Assembly: GCA_000165345.1 (NCBI GenBank)
Contig: CM000431.1
Location: 384,001-448,000 of the forward strand
Direction of reading: 5' to 3'
DNA: 64,000 nucleotides
Shown: positions 10,828-41,069 of the stretch, one piece after another
Numbering within the stretch: the stretch's first letter is position 1
How the letters are laid out: every line of letters starts with the position of its first letter
Position numbers and translations under genes: made by a program
The notes under the pieces: generated by a model
Told to the model about the DNA's origin: nothing
The model's database searches: none
Seen by the model: the letters and a program-made list of their open reading frames with translations, nothing else

Positions 10828-13236
10828 ATGGAGAATTCTGCGATAAATCATCCTTTTAAGAAGAAACTGAATAGAGTACTAGAGCTAAAGCTAGGAGAGA
10901 ATGAGGAATTAATTAATGGGCTTATCAGCTTAGACACAGTAGATGATATATCTGAGGGGATCCCAAAGCACTTAGTTACTGAATTACTGAATACTAAAGG
11001 TCAAAACAAGTGTAGATCCATGCAGCTTTTAATATATAAGTACCATCTAATGGTTGCAGAGAGTTGTTTGGACTCTTTAAAACCTTTTATTGATGATTTG
11101 AGAGCAATGAATAATGAAATCAGATCATTTGAAAAGGAGTTTAATGAGAATGTTACAACTCAGCTAACAAACTGGAATAAATTTACTTTTCCCCTTTTGG
11201 AGGAGTTTAGCATGATACAAGATCAAATACAATTAGTAGAGAATAAGAAAAATATGTGTAATACAATGTTATCACACTTAAGTACCAATTTTGTGGGCGA
11301 TATTAAGAACTTAAAATCTTCCATGGATGAATCCAAGGGGAATCTCTTGTTATCTTTAGTTGCAATTTACAACAAATGTATGGCCAGCGAAATCAATTCC
11401 AAGAAACTGATTGAAATCCTTTCTGGTGATTCACTAGATTCACAAAATACTTCGGAATCTGTCCTCTCTAAGCTTAAGAGTGACCGTGAATACTCTAGTA
11501 TGATACCACAAATTCTGATTAATCTGAAAGCATTAATATTAGATTTGGAACTTAAAAGAAATCAGCTGGCGACTGAAATCACAAGCTTCTTGGTTGATCT
11601 AGTGATCTCTAAGTCACCTGATGAATTTAATGATCAATTTGAACAGTCACAGAATGATGAAGATGAGACAGAAGGAATAGAAAAAGGAACTGAAGAGAAA
11701 GTATGTATTTTTGGAAGTCAAAGCTTTCAGGAGTCTGTCGAAATACTCGAGCTTCATCATAAAGAACAGTGCCATTCTTTACTTACCTGCGTTGTTGAAA
11801 CCAGATCAAAGTACTTGGAATATAGATTTAACCATATTATTGGTCATGGAATTTCTATTGGAGACAACAACTATTCCTCTAATCTACTGGACTACCTGGA
11901 GTCTATTTTCGAATGGATTCGCGTTTGTGGAGTTTCCATTGAGTCTGAATTTCTTATTAAAGCCTTTGGCTATCAGATGTGTGAAGATTGTGAGTTTGAA
12001 GAAAAGCATCTGGACTTTAACCAAAGCGATACTTCTGAGCCAGAATCACTTGATAACATGGCCAAGAATATTTTAAATAGCATTACTCATACACTTTGTA
12101 TCCCCTTTTCTGGAGCAATCAGAGATATTCTTCGTCAGTTTCATCCTCCACAGACATCCAGGCCGGATTCCACTCATCATTTTGGTAACCTAACTTCTCT
12201 TAAGATAGGAATTACTATTGGAATTAAAATTGCACATTTAATCAATAATTATGTTGAGACATTAATTCCAATGTTTAAGATCCTACCTAAGAGATTTAGC
12301 TCAAAACCAAAACAAGCCCGTCTTGCATTTCCTTTACTTATTCAGCGTTTTAAAGATTTAAGAGAAGAAGCAATTGCTCAATATTATGTGTATGCGGGAA
12401 TTGTCAAAGAAAACATATCCTCTCGCATTTCTGAAATCATAACTACAGACTTTTCCATATCCATTTTGGTCATGGAATGGTCTTCCCTCTTAAAAGACAT
12501 CCTCTCTACAATACAAAATGGAGTTCTTGCGATTTCAAATGACAACATTCCAAAAATTGAGGACATTAACTCTACCCTAACATCTATGCTTGACACCTTT
12601 ATTAACCCTATGTTTAATGCTATCTGTTCAGTTGCTACTTCAGACAAAACTCCTCTTGCATCAATCATTCGGATCAATAACGTAAACTACTGCCTCTCAG
12701 TACTAACAACTTTTCAAAAAATGAAAGTCCTATTAGAGAAACAGATTGAAATTGCAAATCAAATTATCAATGATGAAGTTTCCAAACTAACTGATTTTTT
12801 AAAAGAAGAATTTTGTGATAAATATAGATTTGGGGAACTGCTTAAAGAGCTTGAAGCCAAAAAAGAAGGTTTAACAACCCCCCAAGTATTTGAGGGATCT
12901 GCTAATAGTAATACTGACCCCAAACTTGAACCTAATTCTAACTACAATAGTAGTGAAAGCGATCCAGGCCAGGACCCACTTTTAATACTATCACAGGTTA
13001 TCATTGATCAGTTCTTTGAAAGTATCTTACGATTTGGAGCCATCCCTTTTGCCAACGCTGATCGAATTCAAGATAAACAAATTAGAAATAATATTTTAAA
13101 AAACCTTTTCGCACACATTTCCCGCCAATACGAGTTAATATTTGACCAAATTACCCTAATTTGGCCTCAAAAAAGTTCTTTTCTCAGGCACGACCCTCAG
13201 CAAATTAAGCTTATTTTTTCTAGTTTGACCGTTTAG
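10828..13236 (+). CDS. Probable COG2/Vps51-family vesicle-tethering complex subunit (likely COG2).
   Basis: The N-terminal region MLSHLSTNFVGDIKNLKSSMDE matches the COG2/Vps51-domain signature (FVNLSTNLVGMDKAL). The protein is long and helical, consistent with the CATCHR tethering family. The track ORF starts at TTG 10816; the first ATG is at 10828. Confidence 0.45.
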   Translation: MENSAINHPFKKKLNRVLELKLGENEELINGLISLDTVDDISEGIPKHLVTELLNTKGQNKCRSMQLLIYKYHLMVAESCLDSLKPFIDDLRAMNNEIRSFEKEFNENVTTQLTNWNKFTFPLLEEFSMIQDQIQLVENKKNMCNTMLSHLSTNFVGDIKNLKSSMDESKGNLLLSLVAIYNKCMASEINSKKLIEILSGDSLDSQNTSESVLSKLKSDREYSSMIPQILINLKALILDLELKRNQLATEITSFLVDLVISKSPDEFNDQFEQSQNDEDETEGIEKGTEEKVCIFGSQSFQESVEILELHHKEQCHSLLTCVVETRSKYLEYRFNHIIGHGISIGDNNYSSNLLDYLESIFEWIRVCGVSIESEFLIKAFGYQMCEDCEFEEKHLDFNQSDTSEPESLDNMAKNILNSITHTLCIPFSGAIRDILRQFHPPQTSRPDSTHHFGNLTSLKIGITIGIKIAHLINNYVETLIPMFKILPKRFSSKPKQARLAFPLLIQRFKDLREEAIAQYYVYAGIVKENISSRISEIITTDFSISILVMEWSSLLKDILSTIQNGVLAISNDNIPKIEDINSTLTSMLDTFINPMFNAICSVATSDKTPLASIIRINNVNYCLSVLTTFQKMKVLLEKQIEIANQIINDEVSKLTDFLKEEFCDKYRFGELLKELEAKKEGLTTPQVFEGSANSNTDPKLEPNSNYNSSESDPGQDPLLILSQVIIDQFFESILRFGAIPFANADRIQDKQIRNNILKNLFAHISRQYELIFDQITLIWPQKSSFLRHDPQQIKLIFSSLTV

Positions 13237-13359
13237 TGAGGTTATTCTAGCATATACTAATTTACAAATATATTTATTAAAATCGTTCTCTATTATTTAC
13301 TCTTGATTTATTTATTTTTTCGCCTGCATTCACAATCAGGAAAAAACTAGTTATCTTCG

Positions 13360-13382
13360 TTTTCCCGCCTGCGCCACATGCA
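13360..13382. promoter_or_regulatory. E2F-like box TTTTCCCGCCTGCGCCACATGC upstream of the PPi-PFK gene.
   Basis: TTTCCCGCC (the reverse of GGCGGGAAA) plus GCGCCA, about 320 nt upstream of ATG 13691. Confidence 0.55.
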
Positions 13383-13690
13383 AAATATTTTCAAGTTGGC
13401 CCTAGACCGAGGAAATTGCATGTGAAAAGAAAATTATCGAAAAAAATTAATATCAATAATAAAATAAATAGGTTTTACATATCAGCTTTGGAATCGGATT
13501 TTAAAAGGGAATAAAGGGCTGGCTTACTTTTCTAGATTTTTTTTTAAGAAGAAATAGAGAAATTAAGAACAAGAGCCAGCAGAATATAGAAATATAATAT
13601 CAATAGAAAAATAGCAATCACAACTAAAAGGTAATATCAGAGATTAGCAATATATTACCAATTAATTCAAAACTAGGAAAATAAGTAACA

Positions 13691-16600
13691 ATGAGTAACT
13701 ATAAACAAACTGAACTAAAAAGAAACAAGGGCGATTCAAGAGATGTTTCACTACTTTCTGCTTCAAGCTTGCATGAAGGCCAATCAAACATGCAAATGTG
13801 GAGGAGAAGGTGGGAGCCATGCCTACCACACATACTAAGATCCCCGTTATCTATTAAGGAAGTTTCAGCTTTTGAAGGAATGGGGAAAATGGAAAGATCT
13901 GACGTTTCTGCCTATTTTCCTTTAACATCTGGAAACAGTTTGGTGAAGTTTGAGGCCATTTCAGATGGAAGTAGCTCATGGAAGAAGTTTCCCGCCAGAA
14001 GAATCGGAGTAGTATTATCGGGAGGTCAGGCCTCAGGAGGTCATAATGTGATTGCTGGATTAATGTCTTATATTAAACTTTGTAACCAAAGTAGTCAGCT
14101 TTTTGGATTTTTAGGAGGCCCAGAAGGAGTATATAGTGGGAGATACAGAGAGTTAACTGAAGATGATATTAACGGTATACTTAACCAGGGAGGGTTTAAT
14201 ATTATTTGTTCAGGCCGTCACAAAATTGAAACAGAAGAACAAATGAGAGCTTCCTTGGAGATTTGTGAAAAACTCAAATTACATGGCCTAGTAGTAATAG
14301 GAGGAGATGATTCTAATACAAATGCAGCAGTTCTAGCAGAATACTTCAAACGTAACTCGTCTAGTACAGTAGTTGTAGGATGTCCCAAGACCATAGATGG
14401 AGATTTGAAAAACGAGGTAATTGAGACATCTTTTGGTTATGATACAGCAGTGAAAACTTATAGTGAACAGATTGGAAGTATTATGGATGCAATTAAAACT
14501 GAGGGATACGGATACTATTTTGTAAGGTTGATGGGAAGATCTGCATCTCACATTACTTTAGAATGCGGTCTTCAGACTAGAGCGAATATGATCTTGATTG
14601 GAGAAGAAATTAAGGAAGAGAACAGATCTTTGATGTCGATAGTAGACGAAATTGTAGAAATGATTCTAAAAAGAGATTCACTGGGAAAGAAACATGGAAT
14701 TGTATTATTACCCGAAGGGTTAATAGAGTTTATTCCAGAATTTGAGACTTTAATCAAAGAATTAAATCTTATTTTGCTTAAAACTAACGATAGAAAACAG
14801 ATTATAGATAGCTTAAGTCAAGAAATGAAGACTCTTTTCTTGGAGCTTCCTTCAGATGTACAAAATCAGCTCCTTTTAGAAAGGGATCCACATGGTAACG
14901 TTCAAGTAGCAAAGATAGCAACAGAAGAGTTGTTAGTACACATGGCAAAAGAAAAACTTGAGAGGGTAAAGAAGGATTATATTTTAGACAATGTTAAGAC
15001 TCACTACTTTGGATATGAAGGAAGATGCGCTTTACCTTCAAATTTTGATGCAAGTTATTGCTTTGCTCTTGGACATACTGCAGCAGCTCTTATAGACAAT
15101 CAGCGTTCAGGATATATGGCAGTAGTCAGGAAGCTAAGCTTAACTCCTGAACAATGGGAACCAGCAGGATGTCCTCTTACATATATGATGAATATTGAGC
15201 TTAGAAAAGGGAAGTCTGTTCCCGTTATTAAGAAGTACTTAGTAGATCTTAAAGGACAATCTTACTTAGCTTATTGTCAAGTTAGATCTGAGTGGAAGTT
15301 GAATGATTATTACAGAAATCCAGGACCAATACAATTTGATGGTCCTAATTCCGGAGTAACTAATTATATGATTTCTCCTCCAAGAGTGGAGGATTTACTT
15401 AGAATGGAGGATAGATGCGAGAATAAAATGAGTCATAAATTATCAGGGTCAGAAAGCTCTCAAAATAGATCAAAGGACGACATGAAGATACAGAAGATCC
15501 TTCTTTCAACAGCTTCCAAGTTTAACGATGATCTAATCATTTCCTCCTCATGCAGAGATTTAGATGCTTACATTATTACTAAATGTTTACCTCATCAGAC
15601 TGGGAGACACAACAGCAAAATACTACAATTAAAAGAGGAGGAATACTCATCAGGATTCACAGAGATAAGAGAGAACAGCCAGTCAAAATCTTCCATGGGT
15701 AATTCACTAGCTTGTGAGTCACTTGGATTAATTCTATCATGCCTTTCAACTCCTGGTACTCAGAATGTAATTTGTGGACTAGTCAATGGACTACCATCGC
15801 TTAAACAGCTTATAGTTTTTAAGTCTCTCTCAGACTTTTCAGAAGGAAAAGCTCTAAAAGTCGATCTTACTTCCGAAGGATCATTGGCTTTCTTTGAGAA
15901 TTCTCTCAATTCTGGAGGCTGTATATTCCCAAATGGAGTAGAAATAAAAATGAATGTCTCAGAAAAAAAGAGCTCAAATACAACTTTAAAAGCTAATGAT
16001 AACCAAGAATTCACAAACAGCTCTTGCGTTCTTTCATGCAAAGGGCTAGTTAGTAATGACTTCCTCTCTCAACTCTTGTCATTTTTTAATATGCGTGCAA
16101 TTGCAATTGTGGGGAACAGTGAGGCGGCAACGTTTGGCGCCTCTATATCGGAGCAATTAATTTGCATGTCGTTAAATGGCATGAAGAGTGAGATCCCAGT
16201 AGTGTTTGTTCCAGTTTGCTTGGAAAACAGTATTTCTCATCAAATGATTGAGACATGTATTGGATTTGACTCTGTAACTAAGAGTATTTCAACTTTGGTT
16301 GGAAATCTGTTAACAGATTCAGCTTCAGCAACAAAGTATTGGTATTTCATGAAGATGATAGGCGATAAGACTTCAAATGTTGCTTTAGAGGTTGGAATAC
16401 AAACTCATCCAAATTTGGTTGTAATTCCAGAAAGATATGCAGATGGAAAACTTTCAGTTTATGGTTCAGAAATGGCTGGGGTCACTTTAGATGATATTAT
16501 TACTGAAATTTGTGATATAATTTGTTTGAGATCTAATCAGGGAAATAATTTTGGCGGGCTCCTGGTATCAGAAGGTCTTTTTGACCAGGTATACCCAACA

Positions 16601-17674
16601 AGAGAGTATAGGAAGATATTTTCAAGGTTTAGCACTCAGAATTTATGTAATGCTTCAAATTCAGGATGCGAGATTCTGGGTTCTGAAAGTTTAAGTAGAT
16701 ATGAGAAAAAAGTTGTTGAGGATTTCAAACTTATATTTAGTGATATAGATACGAGACTTATTGAGAATTTGATTAATTCAAGAAAGATATGTGATGTTAG
16801 GACTGAGATTATACTCTCAGCTCTGGTTCAAAAGGAACTCAAATTTAGAAGGTCTAAGAATAAAATTAAGAATGGGATGAACCCAGTGTGCTTTAGTTTT
16901 ACAGATCAAGTCAGAGCTTGTATCCCTTCTGATTTTGACTCTACACTTGGATTAATGTACGGAATGCTTGCATCAAAAATAATTAATAGTAACTTGGTTG
17001 GGGGATATGTTACGGGGATTAAGGGGGTATTGAGCCAGACAGATAGTTGGAATATGTATGCTATTCCTATTTCCTCTTTAATGACTTTAAATATTGAAGG
17101 AGATAAAATACAGGATTCAAGAAACAACTCAAATCTTTCATTTGAATCAAAGAAACTTCTAACCGAATCTACACTAGGAAATGCTGGCCATCAACTTGAA
17201 TTCATATGCAAACTGAATTCCGTTAATTTGCGCAATAACCCTTCATTTAAACTTTTAATGAACCACATTGAAAAATGGGAAGTCGATAATACTTATGCTA
17301 ATCCAGGCCCTATTCAATACTTTAATCTATTCAAAAATTTATTCAACAGAACACTATTTGAAAGTGAATACGTTTATACGCGAAACCTAAAAGAAATGGA
17401 TCAAATATTACTTGAAATTAAGACATTATGCCAATTAGGTGTTGAAAAGGATATTTTAAACTCTACTATACAACACTTAAAGGCAATTCAAAATTCTATT
17501 TCAATAATGAGCAGCTGTAACCACAGAAAATCTAAACCAGAACAAATAGAATGCATACAGAAAACAAACTCAATAGCAAACTACACATCAAACTTAAAAT
17601 GCAAAAGCAATAATAATGAAACCAATCTGGAAATGATTGTTAACAATATTATTAATCAGGAAACTTGCAATTAA
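13691..17674 (+). CDS. Pyrophosphate-dependent phosphofructokinase (PPi-PFK), a fused two-domain long form.
   Basis: The N-terminal catalytic half carries GGDDSNTNA, TIDGD and MGRSASHITLECGL. The C-terminal half is a divergent second PFK-like domain. The 1327-aa double-domain form is typical of apicomplexan PPi-PFKs. Confidence 0.9.
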   Translation: MSNYKQTELKRNKGDSRDVSLLSASSLHEGQSNMQMWRRRWEPCLPHILRSPLSIKEVSAFEGMGKMERSDVSAYFPLTSGNSLVKFEAISDGSSSWKKFPARRIGVVLSGGQASGGHNVIAGLMSYIKLCNQSSQLFGFLGGPEGVYSGRYRELTEDDINGILNQGGFNIICSGRHKIETEEQMRASLEICEKLKLHGLVVIGGDDSNTNAAVLAEYFKRNSSSTVVVGCPKTIDGDLKNEVIETSFGYDTAVKTYSEQIGSIMDAIKTEGYGYYFVRLMGRSASHITLECGLQTRANMILIGEEIKEENRSLMSIVDEIVEMILKRDSLGKKHGIVLLPEGLIEFIPEFETLIKELNLILLKTNDRKQIIDSLSQEMKTLFLELPSDVQNQLLLERDPHGNVQVAKIATEELLVHMAKEKLERVKKDYILDNVKTHYFGYEGRCALPSNFDASYCFALGHTAAALIDNQRSGYMAVVRKLSLTPEQWEPAGCPLTYMMNIELRKGKSVPVIKKYLVDLKGQSYLAYCQVRSEWKLNDYYRNPGPIQFDGPNSGVTNYMISPPRVEDLLRMEDRCENKMSHKLSGSESSQNRSKDDMKIQKILLSTASKFNDDLIISSSCRDLDAYIITKCLPHQTGRHNSKILQLKEEEYSSGFTEIRENSQSKSSMGNSLACESLGLILSCLSTPGTQNVICGLVNGLPSLKQLIVFKSLSDFSEGKALKVDLTSEGSLAFFENSLNSGGCIFPNGVEIKMNVSEKKSSNTTLKANDNQEFTNSSCVLSCKGLVSNDFLSQLLSFFNMRAIAIVGNSEAATFGASISEQLICMSLNGMKSEIPVVFVPVCLENSISHQMIETCIGFDSVTKSISTLVGNLLTDSASATKYWYFMKMIGDKTSNVALEVGIQTHPNLVVIPERYADGKLSVYGSEMAGVTLDDIITEICDIICLRSNQGNNFGGLLVSEGLFDQVYPTREYRKIFSRFSTQNLCNASNSGCEILGSESLSRYEKKVVEDFKLIFSDIDTRLIENLINSRKICDVRTEIILSALVQKELKFRRSKNKIKNGMNPVCFSFTDQVRACIPSDFDSTLGLMYGMLASKIINSNLVGGYVTGIKGVLSQTDSWNMYAIPISSLMTLNIEGDKIQDSRNNSNLSFESKKLLTESTLGNAGHQLEFICKLNSVNLRNNPSFKLLMNHIEKWEVDNTYANPGPIQYFNLFKNLFNRTLFESEYVYTRNLKEMDQILLEIKTLCQLGVEKDILNSTIQHLKAIQNSISIMSSCNHRKSKPEQIECIQKTNSIANYTSNLKCKSNNNETNLEMIVNNIINQETCN

Positions 17675-17686
17675 TTCAATTACACA

Positions 17687-17710
17687 TTTTGGCGGTAAGG
17701 CGCCAAAATG
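17687..17710. promoter_or_regulatory. Near-palindromic E2F-like doublet TTTTGGCGGTAAGGCGCCAAAATG.
   Basis: An inverted pair TTTTGGCGG / CGCCAAAA lying between the PFK stop codon (17674) and the SRP RNA terminator (17733-17742). Confidence 0.45.
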
Positions 17711-17737
17711 TGTGCAATCATATATTTTACGAAAAAT

Positions 17738-18040
17738 TTAGTCCGAGATGAATCTCGCGAATCACTGAGATGCCAGGAAGTTACACAACTACTGTTATCC
17801 TTACACCGTACTACAGCGAACCCTTTTCCGTGCTCTGTTTCCAGCCTCCGGCGGTACGGGTTTCACTATCTCACAAGTCACCTCGGTCTCCACCAAGGCA
17901 ACTCTAGAGACTGCAGCCTTGTAATGGGCAGCCATCGTGCAATGTTACTTCCGGGATGTAGTGACACAGTATCCCATCCTAAACCTTTAACGACTCCACT
18001 TGGTTACAGCTGGGCGTTATCCCAGCCAGTCACTATCTAA
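17738..18040 (-). ncRNA. Signal recognition particle RNA (7SL / SRP RNA).
   Basis: A GC-rich island in AT-rich DNA. The minus-strand transcript contains GGCUGGAAACAGAGCACGGAAAAGGGUUCGCUGUAGUA, which aligns to the conserved helix-8 region of human 7SL (GGUCGGAAACGGAGCAGGUCAAAACUCCCGUGCUGAUCAGUA). A 5' Alu-like domain (GGCUGGG...CCCAGCUGUAACC) is present. A TTTTT pol III terminator lies on the minus strand (plus strand 17733-17737). A TATA-like TATTTAATAAT sits about 20-30 nt upstream of the 5' end. The ends are approximate, within about 5 nt. Confidence 0.7.
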
Positions 18041-18249
18041 TGTTTTAGAATTTAGATTATTAAATACTTTACAATACTTTTGAATGACGGCTATTATTTG
18101 GCGGGAACTTACAGCTCATTTATTTTATATTTGTGAAATAGAGGGGGTGGTAAGAATATAAAAAATAAGCTGATATAATCATTGAAATTATTACAATTAT
18201 TGTTAGAATTGGCTGAGTGAAGATATTTCACAGTTAGTTCTCGATCAAA

Positions 18250-18468
18250 ATGTCTGCTCTATTCAATTTTCAAAGCATGATTGTGGTGGTCTTGCTGTCA
18301 ATATGTACATGCTCGTATTTACGTCCAAAAATTCCAGGCTTAATAGACAATAAAAAGTCAGGTTTTTTGGGAATTCTAGGTAAAATGGCGGTTATTGGAG
18401 ATAGACTTAGCCCATATGTGTCATTCGCATGCATTCTAATGGCAGGCATGACATTATTCTATAGATAA
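18250..18468 (+). CDS. Protein kish (TMEM167 homologue), a small 2-TM secretory-pathway protein.
   Basis: MSALFNFQSMIVVVLLSICTCSYLRPKIPGLIDNKKSGFLGILGKMAVIGDRLSPYVSFACILMAGMTLF is near-collinear with human TMEM167A ([61 protein letters not shown]...). Confidence 0.85.
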   Translation: MSALFNFQSMIVVVLLSICTCSYLRPKIPGLIDNKKSGFLGILGKMAVIGDRLSPYVSFACILMAGMTLFYR

Positions 18469-18672: not shown

Positions 18673-19167
18673 CTACTTCAAACCAAATCTTAATTTTCTT
18701 GCTTGGATCTTCTTTTCATGATCTGGATCATTTACTCTTGACATTGTTCCAAACCTTTCTCTTCTATTTTTAATTTTGTCAGCTTCTGATATCATTCCAA
18801 ATCTTTCTTGTCTAAGCTTTCTCTTATCATCTTCTGACGTAGAACCAAATCTTTTTGAACGAGCAAGCCTTTTCTCAGCTTCTGTGGATGGGCCACATGC
18901 TCCAAACTTCTGTCTTCTTAATTCAACTCTTTCTTTTTCAGAAAGTTGGTTAACATCACTTATACATATTGTTTGTCTTACTGGCTCAGAAATGCTTACA
19001 TTCTTTTCTCCTTGATCAGTTTTTACTTCATTACTAGAATTAGTCATTGGCTCATCAAATTCCTCTTTCTCTGCTGATACAGATGTAGTAGCAGTAGCGG
19101 CTGGTACTGTACTATCTGTATGGTTATTTTGTGAGTCATAATCAATCAATGCTTGAACTAGTTGTTG
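18673..19167 (-). CDS. SARNP/CIP29/Tho1-like protein, exon 2 of 2.
   Basis: Acceptor TTTTTAG|CAA continues the SAP helix in phase 0 (QQLVQALIDY...). The C-terminus carries five RFG repeats (RRQKFGA, SKRFGS, RQERFGM, RRERFGT, RKLRFGL), as in human SARNP (RAERFN, RAARFGI, RAQRFGL, RKERFGI, RAERFGI). The track ORF 18673..19149 is this exon with a TTG pseudo-start. Confidence 0.65.
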   Translation of the reverse strand, partial: QQLVQALIDYDSQNNHTDSTVPAATATTSVSAEKEEFDEPMTNSSNEVKTDQGEKNVSISEPVRQTICISDVNQLSEKERVELRRQKFGACGPSTEAEKRLARSKRFGSTSEDDKRKLRQERFGMISEADKIKNRRERFGTMSRVNDPDHEKKIQARKLRFGLK

Positions 19168-20819: not shown

Positions 20820-21803
20820 TTAGTTGGTCTTATTTGAATTTAAACCACATCTAGCAGAAATCATACACAATTGGCCAAGAAGTTTGTCTAATTGTAAGGG
20901 GGTGGCACAACCATCAAGCATGACAAAGTGGCATCTCCCGACCTCTTTTAGGTACTCCAAAATGGCCCTTTCAGGGAGTTGATATCTTTTCAATACATTT
21001 CTCATGGTAATGACAATATCAAGTGGTGAGTAACCCCCAATAAAAAGTTCTTCAACAATGGAGTGAGCTAATCTCCAGTTACATTTAACACAAGAGTCCA
21101 AAATACTCTTAATTTTCTCAGGAGAGGGAATGTCGGAGACTTTGAGTACATTATCTCTAGAAACCATAGAAAATCCATGGTAAGTTGCTTGGAGATTGTT
21201 AATTACAATTCTCATATCTCCATCTGCAGTAAATACAAGAGTGTCAATTCCAGAATCAACGTATGGAATGTTCTCCATCTTGATAATCTCAAATAATCTT
21301 TTTCTGATTTGTGCATCTGTAAGCTTTGAGTACCTAATAATTGCGCATCTACTTTGGATTGGCTCTATAATTTTTGTTGATTGATTACAAGCTAGAGCAA
21401 AACGGGTACTTTCTGAGTAAACTTCCATTAGTCTTCTGAGAGCTTGTTGTGCTGAGTCTGTCATACTGTCTACTTCGTCCAGTATTACAATTTTGTGCCT
21501 TCCTTCAGGTAAGTCAATTTTCTCTCTTGCAAAGCTCTTGATCTTATCTCTAACAACGTCAATTCCACGGTCGTCTGATGCATTTAATTCTAGAACAGCT
21601 CTACCATATTTACTTCCAAGCATTTCAGAAGCCAGACAGTGAATACTAGTAGTCTTTCCTGTTCCTGGAGGACCAGAAAGAAGTAGATTTGGCATATTAC
21701 CATGCTTGGCTAAGACTTTTAATCGAGTTAAAACCTCTTCATTACCAACCATTTCATCCAAAATCTTTGGACGATATTTTTCTATCCAAATTTGGGTTGA
21801 CAT
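20820..21803 (-). CDS. Replication factor C small subunit (human RFC2 / yeast Rfc4 type).
   Basis: EKYRPKILDEMVGNEEV, the P-loop LLLSGPPGTGKTTS, the Walker B ILDEVDSMT and the SRC motif QSRCAIIRY. The track ORF begins at TTG 21830; the first ATG is at 21803-21801. Confidence 0.85.
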   Translation of the reverse strand: MSTQIWIEKYRPKILDEMVGNEEVLTRLKVLAKHGNMPNLLLSGPPGTGKTTSIHCLASEMLGSKYGRAVLELNASDDRGIDVVRDKIKSFAREKIDLPEGRHKIVILDEVDSMTDSAQQALRRLMEVYSESTRFALACNQSTKIIEPIQSRCAIIRYSKLTDAQIRKRLFEIIKMENIPYVDSGIDTLVFTADGDMRIVINNLQATYHGFSMVSRDNVLKVSDIPSPEKIKSILDSCVKCNWRLAHSIVEELFIGGYSPLDIVITMRNVLKRYQLPERAILEYLKEVGRCHFVMLDGCATPLQLDKLLGQLCMISARCGLNSNKTN

Positions 21804-22227
21804 TTCCAATATCTGCTTGCTTTTTACCAACTTATTTCCCTAGCGTTTTATACTTGTATTTTTAAACAGCTATTGCTTCACCAGCCTATAGCTAAGTAAA
21901 ACTTTAACCTAATCCTATAAATCCCAATATACAACCAATGCAATCCCAATATAAATAATATATTCACTCACACCTTTCTTTGTTTCTTTTCCCCTTTATT
22001 TGTCATTTTCCTACTTGTAATATAAATACCACATAGGTACCTCACCCTTGGCGCCATTTATGCTGACTTTAAAAAAAAAATACTTGTAAATGAAATAAAA
22101 TCGATCAAAGCAGCAAGCAATCTATATCCCAAATTAGTTATCACTATAAATACAAGAATCAAAAGTTCTACTAATTTTATATTCACCCTTTTTTTACTTT
22201 ACAAATATTCATCAGAAATTTATTGAC

Positions 22228-40936: not shown

Positions 40937-41069
40937 TTCCTAATATTTTATGTCTTTTTTTGGGAAAATATATAAGGGGTTAATTGTGCTATTGAATAAA
41001 AATTCTAAAAATAAATAAACTTCGTTAAAAGGGTTTGGCTTTGAAATATAAAGGAAAATTGATTTAGAT

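Follow-up and report, generated by a model that had tools for sequence, protein, structure and literature searches.

The GC-rich island on chromosome 3 of Cryptosporidium parvum is almost certainly the gene of the SRP RNA (7SL RNA), which lies on the minus strand and is about 302 nt long (17732..18034, both ends being deduced; positions are those of the window, i.e., the whole 64-kb stretch of DNA analyzed). It is a canonical, ordinary eukaryotic SRP/7SL RNA gene, and no evidence counting against this reading was found. As a universal housekeeping RNA, SRP RNA is expected to be present in C. parvum. The GC content is 0.475-0.52 over 17700-17999 and ~0.28-0.36 on both sides (200-nt windows), which confirms the GC-enriched island described in the sequence-only reading of this DNA. 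The same reading had proposed a 7SL/SRP RNA of about 300 nt on the minus strand, and both the strand and the size (~302 nt; 296-301 nt in the orthologues) are borne out.

The family tested was the eukaryotic SRP RNA (Rfam clan CL00003), and a score above the curated gathering score was taken as the criterion of membership. In the Rfam 15 scan of the 64-kb window, the Protozoa_SRP model (RF01856) matched the minus strand at 18013..17774 over its full length (model positions 1-228 of 228) with 150.1 bits, more than twice the gathering score of 65 (E = 1.4e-32). This was the sole match above the gathering score in the 64 kb; it was recovered when the sub-region alone was scanned, and it outscored the other SRP models on the C. 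parvum sequence in clan competition. The covariance-model search had been set beforehand as a refuting test, and the result lies well above the gathering score. Helices 3 (3' strand), 4, 5, 6 and 8 were aligned to the model with high posterior probability. The model differs from the C. parvum RNA in its extent, as it covers only 240 nt: the RNA extends past it by ~21 nt at the 5' end, where helix 2 and the 5' strand of helix 3 lie, and by ~42 nt at the 3' end, which forms the base of helix 5 and the U-run. Two other matches at 17676-17817, RNA-OUT (19.6 bits, cut-off 41) and greA leader (17.8 bits, cut-off 60), were sub-threshold and were rejected; they are due to a 13-bp palindrome at that place. 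No tRNA genes were found in the 64-kb window, so the SRP RNA gene lacks a tRNA companion of the trypanosomatid type.

The conserved stretch in the 9-species alignment runs from (G)UGAC to GACUAAAUUUUU. We placed the 5' end at A18034 or G18033, because (G)UGAC is where conservation sets in, with freely varying bases immediately before it; the true 5' end of the RNA could lie elsewhere. The 3' end probably falls in the U-run 17736-17732, which corresponds to a T5 run (17732..17736, minus strand) that we read as a putative RNA polymerase III terminator. At least four T are found at or just after the conserved GACU in eight of the nine species (C. felis has TTTGTTT). The ends are therefore at about 18034 and 17732, rather than at 18040 and 17738 as first proposed; the TTTTT terminator proposed at the same time is present at 17736..17732 (minus strand), but it lies 2 nt outside the start coordinate given then.

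The gene sits between the genes of a PPi-phosphofructokinase (PFK) and a DUF1242 protein. The former is a 1327-aa ORF ending at 17674, identified by exact-sequence look-up as pyrophosphate-dependent phosphofructokinase (EAK89146.1); the RNA gene is convergent with it, with 57 nt from the PFK stop to the T-run. The latter (18250..18468, plus strand; Pfam E = 3.9e-15) is divergent from the RNA gene, with a gap of ~215 nt. Exact-sequence look-up also identified part of a SAP-domain protein (18673..19149, minus strand) and replication factor C (RFC; 20820..21830, minus strand). Via the RFC neighbor, the syntenic loci of nine other taxa were obtained (C. ubiquitum, C. felis, C. canis, C. meleagridis, C. 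bovis, C. andersoni, Cryptosporidium chipmunk genotype I, C. hominis and C. tyzzeri); a homologue search with the C-terminal half of PFK gave three distant matches, none from Cryptosporidium. The first seven of these loci were scanned with Rfam, and the orthologues of C. hominis and C. tyzzeri were located by alignment. An SRP RNA was found between the DUF1242/SAP genes and PFK in all seven scanned loci (117-133 bits). Six of the seven orthologues aligned with the full 305 positions of the Plant_SRP model over 296-301 nt, which shows that the real RNA is about 300 nt long and that the protozoan model is shorter at both ends.

The secondary structure was predicted with RNAalifold on the 9-species alignment (mean column identity 80%). 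The consensus fold has 96 base pairs, and standard pairs occupy 96.2% of the cells, compared to 36-42% after a shift of the 3' partners by 1-3 columns. Double-sided changes were found in 31 pairs (10.8 +/- 2.4 in shuffles), and the covariation score was 0.266 (0.161 in shuffles); none of the 500 shuffles reached the observed value in either case, although part of the structural agreement is due to the shared ancestry of closely related species. Many of the double changes come from the two most divergent species, C. bovis and C. andersoni (65-70% identity over the span of the antisense ORF). The C. parvum sequence folded alone gave the same shape (-109.6 kcal/mol, z = -3.45). Across the genus, the canonical eukaryotic architecture is thus kept by compensatory substitutions at a syntenic position, and the covariation of helices 5, 6 and 8 among Cryptosporidium species, which had been suggested as a check, is strong.

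In the 5' part of the Alu domain (17991..18032, minus strand), helices 2, 3 and 4 are arranged around a UGUNR U-turn. Helix 2 (UGACU 18032-18028 with AGUCG 17995-17991; 5 bp) is 95.6% paired with one compensatory pair, and helix 3 (GGCUGGG 18027-18021 with CCCAGCU 18014-18008, loop AUAACG) is 100% paired with two. The U-turn motif UGUAAC (18008-18003) follows, UGUAACC being invariant in the nine species, and helix 4 (CC[AAGU]GG, 18003-17996) consists of two invariant base pairs and the loop AAGU. Between the loops, two pairs (AC with GU) are possible, the helix 3 loop being 6 nt long and ending in an invariant ACG; the bases involved are invariant. Of the Alu-like 5' end described in the sequence-only reading, the string CCCAGCUGUAACC was found at 18014..18002 (minus strand), but the proposed UAGUGAC/GUCACUA helix is not conserved: it forms in C. 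parvum, only 68% of the cells are paired over the nine species, and 52 of 500 shuffles did equally well. The GUCAC segment pairs instead with GUGAU in helix 5, with covariation.

Helix 5 (17988-17910 with 17817-17732, minus strand) is a long helix of 55 pairs, the segments of which are 86-100% paired and in which 15 pairs carry double changes. Its 3' strand (17732..17817) includes the conserved internal loop GGAUAAC, its terminal CUAAAUUUUU pairs with AAAGGUUUAG, and the U's of the U-run 17736-17732 pair with AAAGG at the base of the helix. Helix 6 (17870..17909) forms a hairpin of 16 pairs (95.8% paired, seven with compensatory changes) that is capped by a GGAG tetraloop of the GNAR type (17891-17888); UGGAGA of this loop is invariant in the nine species, and in known SRPs this hairpin binds SRP19. 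Helix 8 (17819..17862), the binding site of the SRP54 M domain in known SRPs, carries a GAAA tetraloop (17841-17838) of the GNRA type and the AGG and AGCA internal-loop motifs. It was aligned to the Rfam consensus AGGCUGGaAACAGAGCA; the segment with the GAAA loop, GGAGGCUGGAAACAGAGCACGG, is located at 17850-17829 (minus strand). A 32-nt core of helix 8 is invariant in eight of the nine species, and three of the five pairs of its basal stem show compensatory changes. The helix 8 with GNRA loop and AGCA that was recognized from the letters alone is therefore correct, the string quoted for it, GGCUGGAAACAGAGCACGGAAAAGGGUUCGCUGUAGUA, being found at 17846..17809 (minus strand).

The GNRA/AGCA helix 8, the GGAG of helix 6 and the UGUNR U-turn are established features of SRP RNAs. 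With human 7SL RNA the C. parvum RNA shares the domain plan, the GNRA and AGCA motifs of helix 8, the GGAG of helix 6 and the UGUNR U-turn of the Alu domain, whereas the primary sequence outside these motifs is unrelated and the upstream elements differ. The Plant_SRP model (RF01855) was the best-scoring model for six of the seven orthologues scanned, although the host is an apicomplexan and the C. parvum sequence itself prefers the protozoan model; the Alu-domain string UGUAACC-AAGUGG resembles that of plant 7SL RNA. The SRP RNA of Plasmodium falciparum, from the same phylum, is of similar length (303 nt; PMC4040695) and likewise has small apical loops in the Alu domain (PMC4040695, PMC8137916). 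In the Alu RNA of Plasmodium, helices 3 and 4 carry insertions, and the molecule takes up an open form that lacks the loop-loop pseudoknot (PMC8137916), whereas in Cryptosporidium helix 4 comprises merely 2 bp with an AAGU loop and the helix 3 loop has 6 nt.

Judging from the conserved binding motifs, the RNA probably assembles with SRP proteins and acts in co-translational targeting. If SRP works here as established elsewhere, RNA polymerase III would transcribe the gene and stop in the T5 run, and the RNA would serve as the scaffold for SRP9/14 (Alu domain) and for SRP19, SRP54 and SRP68/72 (S domain). The particle would then bind signal peptides on nascent chains, slow or arrest elongation and bring the ribosome to the ER translocon.

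An SRP RNA of C. parvum, and its antisense nesting in a hypothetical gene, have already been published; the present analysis is an annotation correction. Li et al. 2022 (Microb Genom, PMC9465071) applied Rfam and small-RNA-seq to C. parvum IOWA-ATCC; they reported one SRP RNA with 22,884 small-RNA reads, nested antisense in the hypothetical gene CPATCC_0032370 and covering >80% of it, and suggested a possible co-evolution of the SRP RNA and the antisense gene. Because the RNA is single-copy and overlaps in antisense, we infer that CPATCC_0032370 is the 110-aa ORF (MCAIIYF...) at 17708..18040 (plus strand), of which the RNA covers ~91%. A survey of conserved elements in Alveolata listed one Protozoa_SRP element (PMC5028923), and in the literature searched no older SRP RNA survey naming Cryptosporidium was found.

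This ORF, cgd3_1410, is very unlikely to code for a protein, whether in place of the RNA or as an antisense partner that co-evolves with it. It is an intact ATG-to-stop frame of 110 codons and stands as a hypothetical protein in at least four annotations of C. parvum (exact-sequence look-up: cgd3_1410 / EAK89145.1 / Q5CUU8; QOY42490.1, CPATCC_001131; WKS76883.1; WRK31375.1; KAL5369490.1, CPHLJ_3g1410) and in C. hominis (115 aa); its sequence cluster consists of C. parvum and C. hominis entries only. However, the frame is intact only in C. hominis (99% identical) among eight species, and frameshifts or stops break it in seven (C. meleagridis, chipmunk genotype I, C. ubiquitum, C. canis, C. felis, C. 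bovis and C. andersoni), and even C. meleagridis, at 94% DNA identity, shows a deletion of 5 nt along with several in-frame stops. The C. tyzzeri locus has its ATG out of frame, and the only call there is a 58-aa fragment; no gene was called at this position in C. ubiquitum, C. felis, C. canis, C. bovis and C. andersoni. Substitutions at codon positions 1/2/3 number 130/136/128 in the C. parvum frame (eight species), with no excess at third positions, the ORF has no Pfam match at E <= 0.01, and RNA pairing fully explains the sequence conservation over it. The gene is also among the top UV-up-regulated genes of a C. parvum oocyst microarray ('small hypothetical protein', 2.19-fold; PMC3542205), but this induction should be read with caution. 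The probe target is antisense to the SRP RNA gene; the signal may stem from the abundant SRP RNA locus itself. The ORF is an artefact and not a gene, as the sequence-only reading had held, and the comparative evidence does not support a gene co-evolving with the RNA. The frame of 110 codons is solely a by-product of the relatively high GC content of the RNA gene, which leaves few stop codons there in an otherwise AT-rich genome. The practical value of this result lies in curation, as several GenBank and UniProt records of C. parvum and C. hominis still carry the ORF as a hypothetical protein; the comparative evidence indicates that it should be dropped from the annotation and an ncRNA feature added.

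A copy that is no longer a working gene, i.e., a 7SL-derived pseudogene or a SINE-like retroposed element, is an even more improbable source of the island. Repeats derived from 7SL are common in some eukaryotes; the scan with the SRP models covered the 64-kb window, in which no dispersed Alu-like copies were seen. Against such an origin stand the syntenic position, constant across the genus from C. parvum to C. andersoni, the compensatory changes that keep every helix intact, the invariance of all protein-binding motifs, and the conservation of the upstream blocks and the T-run; furthermore, a single, expressed SRP RNA was found in the genome (Li et al. 2022, PMC9465071).

Upstream of the SRP RNA gene, the 9-species alignment revealed conserved blocks (18043..18107, minus strand) that are candidate external promoter elements. 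The most distal, GTTCCCGCCAA (18107-18097), is E2F-like and conserved in eight of nine species. It is followed by the PSE-like GCCGTCATTCAAAAG (18091-18077, about -57..-43), the core of which is kept in all nine; its GCCGTCATNNNAAAG is unique in the window (0.10 matches expected). Close to the start lies AAATTCTAAAA (18053-18043), with the pattern AAATTCnnAAA in 9/9 species; this invariant AAATTCYRAAA box, at about -19..-9, is unusually near the start. The upstream boxes of the SRP RNA gene can be written as GCCGTCAT...AAAG and AAATTCYRAAA. As for the TATA-like element noted earlier, TTAATAAT is indeed present (18065..18058, minus strand; about -31..-24 from the deduced 5' end), but it is conserved only in C. 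parvum-like species and is weak evidence in AT-rich DNA. We tentatively consider that the gene might be driven entirely by the genus-conserved upstream elements, namely the PSE-like GCCGTCATTCAAAAG and the AAATTCYRAAA box, a possibility that we hold to be rather doubtful; if true, this would give a first outline of a promoter of the snRNA type (type 3-like) for RNA polymerase III in Cryptosporidium. The upstream blocks could instead be the promoter of the divergent DUF1242 gene.

Within the gene, GGTTCG at 17823-17818 was considered as an internal B box of the tRNA type and rejected: other species have GGACTC, GAGCTC or GAACTC, and the segment varies with its helix 8 partner, so that it is not a conserved promoter box. 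The A-box-like TAACCAAGTGG (18006-17996) is invariant, but coincides with the U-turn and helix 4. AAATTCTAAAA recurs at 41000-41010 (chance expectation 0.77), in the AT-rich promoter of a protein gene and with no RNA gene after it; this copy was likewise rejected.

Several observations concern the neighboring genes. The 72-aa ORF at 18250-18468 (plus strand) is a genuine small DUF1242 gene, the position of which is kept as far as C. andersoni. RFC (20820-21830, minus strand) has been deposited with differing starts across C. parvum annotations (327, 336 and 339 aa). In C. andersoni, an additional Band_7 gene (11906-12958 of its locus) is located between the zf-U1 and SAP genes. The distance from the SRP RNA to the called PFK gene is ~650 nt in C. 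andersoni (14705-15355), ~340 nt in C. bovis (14359-14702) and 57 nt in C. parvum. The PFK models POM82517.1 (C. meleagridis, 1411 aa) and OLQ18868.1 (C. hominis, 1380 aa) have false C-terminal exons, which are the antisense of the SRP RNA gene (13757-14100 of the C. meleagridis locus; 13754-14026 of the C. hominis locus). The PFK model of chipmunk genotype I (1460 aa, 13253-18130 of its locus) spans the SRP RNA locus and reaches DUF1242.

In C. parvum, the 57 nt that separate the PFK stop from the SRP RNA terminator contain a perfect 13-nt inverted repeat (ACACATTTTGGCG/CGCCAAAATGTGT, 6-nt spacer, -19.2 kcal/mol; window 17682-17713), which carries E2F-like GGCGCC and TTTGGCGG motifs. An imperfect version, TTTTGGCGGTAAGGCGCCATCTTTTGT, is present in C. 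hominis, C. tyzzeri, C. meleagridis, chipmunk genotype I and C. ubiquitum. The C. parvum version has an inversion of the central 14 nt, and its 3' arm has become exactly complementary to the 5' arm; this looks like a lineage-specific template-switch mutation (quasi-palindrome correction).
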